Shown piece by piece: positions 15,635 through 57,410 of a stretch of DNA of 64,000 bases. The stretch is taken from NCBI RefSeq assembly GCF_006345805.1, contig NC_042997.1:127658001-127722000 (forward strand), in the 5' to 3' direction. The stretch comes from Octopus sinensis. Lineage: Eukaryota. The notes under the pieces are model-generated. The model searched no databases and had not been told where the DNA came from. It saw only the letters and a list, made by a program, of their open reading frames with translations. Positions within the stretch are counted from its first letter, which is position 1, and each line of letters begins with the position of its first letter. Position numbers and translations under genes: made by a program.

Positions 15635-16458
15635 GTTATCAGCTTTATTACATTATTACATGCACGTATGCTCATGCACACATGCAAATACATAAACACA
15701 CATGCAATATATATACACACACAAACTACCCCTACCCCATATCATCATCATCATCATTCTCATCGTTTAATGCCCGCTTTCCATGCTGGCATGAGTTGGA
15801 CGATTTTGACTGAGGGCTGGTGAACCAGATGGCTGCACCAGGCTCCAATCTTGATCTGGCAGAATTTCTACAGCTGGATGCCCTTCCTAATGCCAACCAC
15901 TCCCAGAATATAGTGGGTGCTTTTTACATGCCACCAGTATGGGGACCAGTCAGGCGGTACTGGCAACAACCTCTATATATATTCATATATAGCCAAAACA
16001 TATATATATATATGTTTTGGCTATATACTGGCAACAACCTCTATATATATTCATATATAGCCAAAACATATATATATATATATATATATATATGTTTTGG
16101 CTATATATGAATATATATAGAGGTTGTTGCCAGTACCGCCTGACTGGTCCCCATACTGGTGGCATGTAAAAAGCATCCACTACATTCTGGGAGTGGTTGG
16201 CATTAGGAAGGGCATCCAGCTGTAGAAATTCTGCCAGATCAAGATTGGTGCCTGGTGCAGCCATCTGGTTCACCAGCCCTCAGTCAAAATCGTCCAACCC
16301 ATGCCAGCGTGGAAAGCAGGCATTAAACGATGAGAATGATGATGATGATGATATGGGGTAGGGGTAGTTTGTGTGTGTATATATATTGCATGTGTGTTTA
16401 TATATTTGCATGTGTGCATGAGCATACGTGCATGTAATAATGTAATAAAGCTGATAAC
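15635..16458. repeat. Long spacer-less inverted duplication (~375-bp arms) containing a SINE E copy
   Basis: gttatcagctttattaca at 15635 is the reverse complement of tgtaataaagctgataac ending at 16458; about 7 substitutions between arms; centred on (TA)n. Confidence 0.95.
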
Positions 16459-53667: not shown

Positions 53668-53726
<59 letters not shown>

Positions 53727-53807
53727 CAATTGCAGCGTGGAAGGTGTTTGTAAGCCATTTAAGAAACACACAAAAGCCGTTTGATTCACTTCAACATTTA
53801 AGTTTAA

Positions 53808-53858
53808 TTTGTCAAAATATTTTCGTCGCTATAAGACCGCGACCTGTTCACTGACAAA
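53808..53858 (-). ncRNA. Minimal type-I hammerhead ribozyme candidate with G3-C8 core
   Basis: TTTGTCA-GTGAACA-g-GTCGC ggtcttata GCGAC-GAAA-ATAT-TT-TGACAAA; perfect 7-bp helix I and 5-bp helix II, palindromic AATATT helix III. Confidence 0.7.
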
Positions 53859-53935
53859 AATCTGTGTTGCATCTCATTGTTTTCGTTCCAGCACACGATC
53901 TCAGATCAAATCACTTGCTATGCAAGTACATCCCT

Positions 53936-54036
<101 letters not shown>

Positions 54037-56671: not shown

Positions 56672-57092
56672 TGAGCTGGCAGAAAAGTTAGCACGCCGGA
56701 CGAAATACTTTAGAGGTATTTGGTCTGCCGCTACGTTCTGAGTTAAAATTCCGCCGAGGTCGACTTTGTCTTTCATCCTTTCGGGGTCGATTAAATAAGT
56801 ACCAGTTATGCACTGGGGTCGATGTAATCGACTTAATCCGTTTGTCTGTCCTTGTTTTCCCCCTCTGTGTCTAGCCCCTTGTGGGCAGTAAAGAAATAAG
56901 AATCGTTAGTACATCGGACAAAATGCTTAGCAGTATTTCTTCCAGTTTTACGTTCTGAGTTCAAATTCCACCGAGGTCGACTTTACCTTTCATCTTTTCG
57001 AGGTCGATAAAATAATTAGTTAAGCATTAGGGTTGGTGTAACCGACATTTCATTCCATCAATATTGCTCGCCCAGTGCTAAGATCAGAAAGA
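56672..57092 (+). mobile_element. Two adjacent SINE D copies (young 56672-56900, older 56900-57092)
   Basis: Both carry ccgaggtcgacttt..ctttcatc.tttcg.ggtcgat. Confidence 0.85.
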
Positions 57093-57379
57093 ATTATTAT
57101 TAGTCAACGCGTTAACCATTTAACCAAATAACAATCGATTTTTCCTTTTTTTATTAATCGTTCGGTCATTCAATCAGCTAAGTTTGTCAAAGTCTTTTCA
57201 TCACCATTCGCGACCTCATCAAGGGCATTCCCCTTTGACTCCAGGTCTGCTTCGGATCTCGATGAATCGCAAAGGACAACGAACAAACACTGACAATCCT
57301 AGCTGATTGATTGTTTGATTAACCGACCAATTAATCGAAAGATCGAACAATTAATTGGTTAAATGGTTTAACTAGTTTG

Positions 57380-57410
<31 letters not shown>

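Follow-up and report, generated by a model that had tools for sequence, protein, structure and literature searches.

The minus strand of an Octopus sinensis locus carries, at positions 53808–53858 of the window (the whole 64,000-nucleotide stretch of DNA that was analyzed), a motif that resembles a type I hammerhead ribozyme and has G3 and C8 where the consensus has C3 and G8. The locus raises the question of whether a hammerhead with an inverted 3-8 pair is in use in nature, which element carries it, and what it could do there.

Sequence and predicted fold of the motif

A letter-by-letter check bore out the layout given in a preliminary description, namely the helices, a GTGAACA core, an extra G, GAAA, AATATT, and a UUU site. 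By sequence and folding, helix I pairs TTTGTCA (53852–53858) with TGACAAA (53808–53814) over 7 bp. The core (53845–53851) reads G3 U4 G5 A6 A7 C8 A9, with G3 at 53851, C8 at 53846, and A9 at 53845, and an extra G (53844), usual in hammerheads of Penelope-like elements (PLEs), lies between A9 and G10.1. Helix II (53825–53843) joins GTCGC (53843–53839) to GCGAC (53829–53825) over 5 bp and closes a 9-nt loop that differs among subfamilies. The segment at 53815–53824 comprises GAAA (53824–53821; G12, A13, and A14), the palindromic helix III AATATT (53821–53816), and U17 (53815). From hammerhead numbering, the cut is predicted to fall between 53815 and 53814.

Sequence, folding, and a descriptor search all identified the motif as hammerhead-type. 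The 3-8 pair is Watson-Crick, U4, G5, A6, A9, G12, A13, A14, A15.1, U16.1, and H17 are retained, and three helices surround the junction with helix I open, as in type I hammerheads; helix III has just 2 bp in the monomer. Features of minimal PLE hammerheads were likewise present: the extra nucleotide between 9 and 10.1, a G10.1-C11.1 pair, a palindromic 15.2-16.2 helix, and a location in pseudo-LTRs (pLTRs). When any Watson-Crick 3-8 pair was allowed, 53808–53858 was the sole descriptor site in the 64-kb window, and shuffled controls gave matches in 0 of 200 cases with the strict descriptor and 3 of 200 with the loose one. The motif folded with a minimum free energy (MFE) of -14.5 kcal/mol (z, -2.5), and within the surrounding transcript, formation of helices I and II was predicted (p > 0.9). 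The monomer MFE structure lengthens helix I through a G3·U17 pair, and this extended fold is likely inactive. Folding energies did not favor the dimer (-25.4 for the double hammerhead versus -27.6 for two monomer MFEs).

An Rfam search of the motif stretch returned no hammerhead at E ≤ 10, as had been anticipated for standard searches. Because G3 and C8 replace the literal C3 and G8 of the consensus at 53808–53858, and because Rfam gave no hammerhead match, we classed the motif as a variant and did not assign it to an Rfam family. Over the whole window, the 150 of 460 Rfam matches listed contained only microsatellite-driven miRNA matches. A long TA-rich inverted repeat at 15940–16153, where plant miRNA models scored below their thresholds, is likely a foldback duplication.

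A Penelope-like retrotransposon as carrier

The motif had been placed in an ORF-less module at 53727–53940, which proved to be a truncated PLE insertion holding the first ORF codons. Judged from its sequence, this copy is a short insertion in which an inverted pLTR is joined to a direct-copy tail stub. The 3' part of the pLTR occupies 53727–53874 on the minus strand, from a putative transcription start at A 53874 to a short 3' end, CAATTG, and includes the start codon of the element ORF (minus strand, 53756–53758; MAYKHLPRCN... in the full unit). An untemplated G at 53875 (minus strand), likely copied from a cap, stands ahead of the first element base. The stub, on the plus strand at 53876–53936, represents the PLE tail of about 57 nt, corresponding to the beginning of the ORF, and (TA)n target tracts lie to the left (53673–53726) and right (53939–53991) of the insertion. 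No ORF was detected in the window by tblastn.

Many relatives of the 214-bp module, with 86–99% identity, are present in the genome and are referred to here as family F1. Their layout is that of PLE insertions, with a unit of approximately 150 nt that carries the motif and may have a 57-nt tail; head-to-head inverted copies occur, the targets are (TA)n, and a clear target duplication is present for at least one copy (L002). Linkage to a PLE ORF, proposed as a check in the preliminary description, was found. One locus (L175) holds a full unit, in which two pLTRs enclose an ORF that spans about 1,070 codons and has one frameshift, with GTGAACAG in both repeats, and a pLTR lay inside the fetched stretch at nine of 10 ORF loci. 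One marine RNA-library contig covers the motif, which is too little to show expression.

The F1 ORF translation contains YVDD, a CX3CxxC linker (CQSNCAVC), and YIGET. The element thus has the makeup of an EN+ PLE: by motifs in the translations, a single ORF encodes a reverse transcriptase (RT) plus a GIY-YIG endonuclease at the C terminus, and direct pLTRs around the ORF occur together with inverted 5' copies and an optional tail. The linker also conforms to the CX2-5CxxC pattern found ahead of the endonuclease in Neptune/Nematis-type elements. Atlas neighbors of the ORF were RT/PLE-type clusters at 0.97–0.98, some members of which had RVT_1, HTH_animal, or GIY-YIG. The long open ORF pieces of L175 and L177 gave no RT or GIY-YIG match in Pfam-A at E ≤ 0.1 (3 of 3 pieces), indicating that such PLEs escape Pfam-based annotation. 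Non-LTR retrozymes consist of non-autonomous head-to-tail tandem repeats that each carry a hammerhead; F1 copies are solo, in inverted pairs, or ORF-linked, and F1 is therefore not a retrozyme.

Several published systems resemble F1. EN+ PLEs of the Neptune/Nematis type, described by Craig et al. (2021, PMC8557442), share with F1 the C-terminal GIY-YIG, the CX2-5CxxC linker, inverted 5' copies, an optional tail, and (TA)n targets, a likeness drawn from motifs and element layout; the F1 tail measures about 57 nt versus 30–40 in those elements. As in the minimal type I PLE hammerheads of Cervera and de la Pena (2014, PMC4209133), the F1 motif occurs in both pLTRs and has the extra nucleotide 9/10.1, G10.1-C11.1, and a short palindromic helix III, and those hammerheads also form thousands of solo copies and opposite-strand pairs. 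U17 occurs in 24 of the 56 rows of Fig. S3 of that paper (our own count), and UUU in one mollusc row. U17, the palindromic helix III, and the additional nucleotide following A9, all of which appear in the preliminary description, are standard in PLE hammerheads as described in PMC4209133 and are not further oddities.

The 3-8 pair in F1 and in related families

The sole new feature of the motif is G3-C8, the remaining features being ordinary for PLE hammerheads. When positions 3, 7, and 8 were left free, the core had 6,264 matches in the genome, and 5,686 of these were G3-C8. G3 and C8 are therefore conserved jointly in homologs, as had been expected, and the term "rare variant" does not suit a state with at least 5,686 copies in the genome. 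Y3-R8 accounted for only five of the 6,264 core matches, none of them C3-G8 or U3-A8. G3-R8 was found in 248 core matches, with, by our count, about 73 G8 versus 27 A8 among the first 100 listed. We also sampled 100 F1 copies by their 3' part, 81 of which span the motif; 71 of these were G3-C8, five G3-G8, and five other (G3 in 78 and C8 in 72). Every copy in the youngest ORF clade was G3-C8. In contigs of three other organism labels, no variant reached 5% at position 3 or 8. Matches to the G3-C8 core plus helix II in metagenomes numbered 50 and were judged to be chance, as helix I of at least 5 bp was present in 0 of 50.

Loss of the pair was seen in ORF-linked G3·G8 copies (L068, L071, and L073, contig C20), which have different flanks and fall in a small young clade with a C8 copy; all five members of this clade lie on this one contig. 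The existence of this young ORF-linked clade indicates that a broken pair was no bar to spread. G3·G8 as a preserved evolutionary intermediate was disfavored, since the clade is young and lies among C8 lineages in a tree of 25 ORF copies that was midpoint-rooted with no outgroup.

A second motif in the window, at 57184–57228, had been presented as a related motif with TTGATGA and the same TGACAAA strand, consistent with covariation. Both sequences are present on the minus strand (TTGATGA..GAAA at 57222–57196 and TGACAAA at 57189–57183); its 3-8 pair, however, is U·G and not Watson-Crick, and its helix I 5' strand, TGCCC, is unpaired with TGACAAA. The site (57183–57228) is a decayed copy of an older related family, F2, with broken helix I. 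F2 features are TTGATGA, U17, and a G-C 15.2-16.2 pair, and its majority core state is U3·G8 (19 of 30 loci examined; U3 in 60 of 81 matches by manual count), so the motif is not the covarying partner of F1. We also considered that 57184–57228 was a chance match in a foldback element, which was rejected because it belongs to a repeat family with a hammerhead fold. F2 loci (window 57100–57380; L085–L104 and L110–L139) have a GA loop in helix III, and several copies, including that in the window, have inverted arms.

The C3-G8 partner is instead found in a third family, F3 (L140–L168), which has a canonical CTGAAGA core, C17, and a G-C 2.1-1.1 pair (18 copies aligned; 22 matches to a tight pattern). 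Pairs 2.1-1.1 and 15.2-16.2 vary among the families yet stay paired. Beyond the motif, F1-F2 homology had a score reached by 2 of 2,000 shuffles, and F2-F3 homology had a best E of 3e-6, the 3' part of F3 being homologous to F2; direct F1-F3 homology beyond the motif was not significant (1,077 of 2,000 shuffles). No clear ORF link was detected by tblastn in the 3-kb loci of F2 and F3. Since F2 amplified with U3·G8, position 3 is relaxed in this lineage.

According to the literature, C3G or G8C alone abolishes cleavage, and the double change partly rescues it. The Anolis Poseidon element PAc (Frangieh et al. 2024, PMC11167929) provides the closest comparison: C3G/G8C in this lizard PLE hammerhead is the same swap as in F1 and partly restores cleavage, with protein required, but it is a laboratory mutant. 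Natural U3-A8 variants (Perreault et al. 2011, PMC3088659) likewise represent a compensated 3-8 change; U-A keeps the pyrimidine-purine order, whereas G-C of F1 inverts it, and no G3-C8 was found in the accessible part of that paper. In the 56 rows of PMC4209133, unlike F1, position 3 was C in 53, U in three, and G in none, with descriptors that could not find G3-C8; the covariation reported there is U3-A8, and U3·G8 appears in one row. In the part of the relevant literature that was searched, among it passages of PMC8495972, PMC6765202, PMC6155905, and bioRxiv 10.64898/2026.07.22.740005, no natural G3-C8 hammerhead was found. Going by its sequence, the F1 pair would be the natural counterpart of a change that the searched literature shows solely in an engineered mutant. 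The 3-8 pair is known from engineered swaps, and U3-A8 alone was found in print as natural covariation; thousands of G3-C8 copies beside C3-G8 and U3·G8 families form a natural series on core tolerance. Standard descriptors thus undercount PLE hammerheads.

A selected hammerhead is the best reading of F1. ORF lineage A departs from lineage B at 30 of 141 fourfold-degenerate sites (21%), yet the core is the same in both. Common subfamily variants affect one of 42 structural positions, where a wobble pair is kept, versus five of nine loop-2 positions (p = 0.0003). The 3' flank is conserved almost like the motif (common variants at 4 of 58 versus 1 of 42 positions; p = 0.40), so the constraint within F1 is not specific to the ribozyme.

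Copy 5' ends and the role of the motif

The 5' ends of the 100 sampled F1 copies formed a main cluster 13–28 nt upstream of G3 (about 22), around AGATGC. The cluster at -7/-8 is partly an artifact of the reference subfamily. At the predicted cut (+36) only one of 100 copies ended, with two more within 4 nt; insertions starting at the ribozyme cut were thus rejected, 5' ends being nearly absent at U1.1. Among 56 copies with the AG boundary, 44 end there and 12 run on. A G directly precedes the boundary in 32 of the 44 ending copies, and C or T does so in all 12 that run on; bases farther upstream are variable. An untemplated G marks reverse transcription that has run through a cap, and the TCAGAT at the boundary resembles an initiator. 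In Penelope, the promoter is internal and contains an initiator (PMC2377424). The 5'-end cluster, the untemplated G, and the initiator-like TCAGAT together suggest that the RNA likely starts there and is capped and copied uncut. An ACTAAC...YAG sequence resembling a branch point and acceptor overlaps the boundary in the full repeat. A splice junction was nevertheless disfavored, read-through RNA apart, because the copies retain the AG, and upstream of it a single base is invariant.

In L175 the predicted cut lies 58 nt past the inferred start and 56 nt ahead of the AUG. A capped, uncut template for F1 would agree with the finding in Anolis that uncut RNA is the insertion substrate (PMC11167929). 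F1 and PAc also share a tail that is the start of the ORF; in PAc, of the Penelope/Poseidon clade, the ORF begins within helix II, and in F1 about 56 nt past the predicted cut. The copy-end data touch on what PLE hammerheads are for, as insertions here seemingly come from capped, uncut RNA.

These data point to F1 as a PLE terminal-repeat hammerhead with family-wide G3-C8 that probably acts as a weak self-cleaving ribozyme and would need a second copy or an element protein. In published work, cleavage by minimal PLE hammerheads is poor even in dimers (PMC4209133). Capped F1 RNA would begin roughly 22 nt upstream of G3, which would place the motif within the 5' UTR. Two copies could pair through the palindrome AAUAUU into a 6-bp helix III, and G3-C8 would fix the position of nucleotide 8 in the same way as C3-G8. 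A rare cut after U17 may then remove the cap or process tandem transcripts. Since most insertions apparently derive from uncut RNA, cutting would affect RNA fate and not make the insertion template.

How the inverted pair was tolerated may involve nucleotide 17. G3 could pair with it and extend helix I, and a G3-C8 variant reportedly had higher activity when nucleotide 17 was G than when it was C (PMC3884650, in which the data were not shown). U17 in F1 versus C17 in F3 is consistent, at the sequence level, with avoidance of such a G3-C17 trap. Against this, U17 is common anyway (24 of 56 published rows), and the monomer MFE structure still makes G3·U17. More speculatively, and with some doubt on our part, a recently active family may run on a cleaving inverted G3-C8 hammerhead reached from C3-G8 via a permissive U17 that avoids the trap; located between cap and start codon, it would be a conditional off-switch for the mRNA of the element itself and not a template maker. 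If so, CUGANGA-based surveys missed whole families.

Alternatively, the fold may be kept for a non-catalytic role, such as binding a protein, controlling translation, or serving as promoter DNA immediately downstream of the start site, the ribozyme being dead or nearly so. Copies apparently made from uncut, capped RNA, the spread of the G3·G8 lineage, and conservation of the entire 5' UTR would all fit such a role, as does the finding that catalytic mutants of another PLE left in vitro insertion unimpaired (PMC11167929). We nonetheless regard it as unlikely, because the sole two altered core positions pair with each other and stay complementary (about 1 in 165 by a rough count over 11 core positions), and because three families retain all the other catalytic nucleotides despite divergence in loop 2 and the flanks. 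The complementarity of the two changes also counts against the idea that the swap was a chance double substitution in one master copy with an unselected ribozyme, spread by retrotransposition. High copy number is by itself uninformative on function, and F2 has an uncompensated U3·G8, both of which would allow for chance; the core has, however, stayed constant despite the 21% fourfold divergence (over 28 positions, some 6 changes would be expected, and the probability of none is about 0.001), and a purely fortuitous swap seems very improbable. A weak but cleaving hammerhead remains our preferred account of F1.

Other repeats were seen near F1 copies and elsewhere in the window. A short repeat (…tcgaccccag…gaaaggatgaaag…aactcagaacgt), presumably of the SINE type, is present several times at 56700–57030 and recurs in fetched loci. 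Fragments of another GIY-YIG-type ORF, which contains asparagine-rich stretches, adjoin F1 copies at three loci (L061, L082, and L179), which suggests that a second PLE family occupies the same AT-rich sites.
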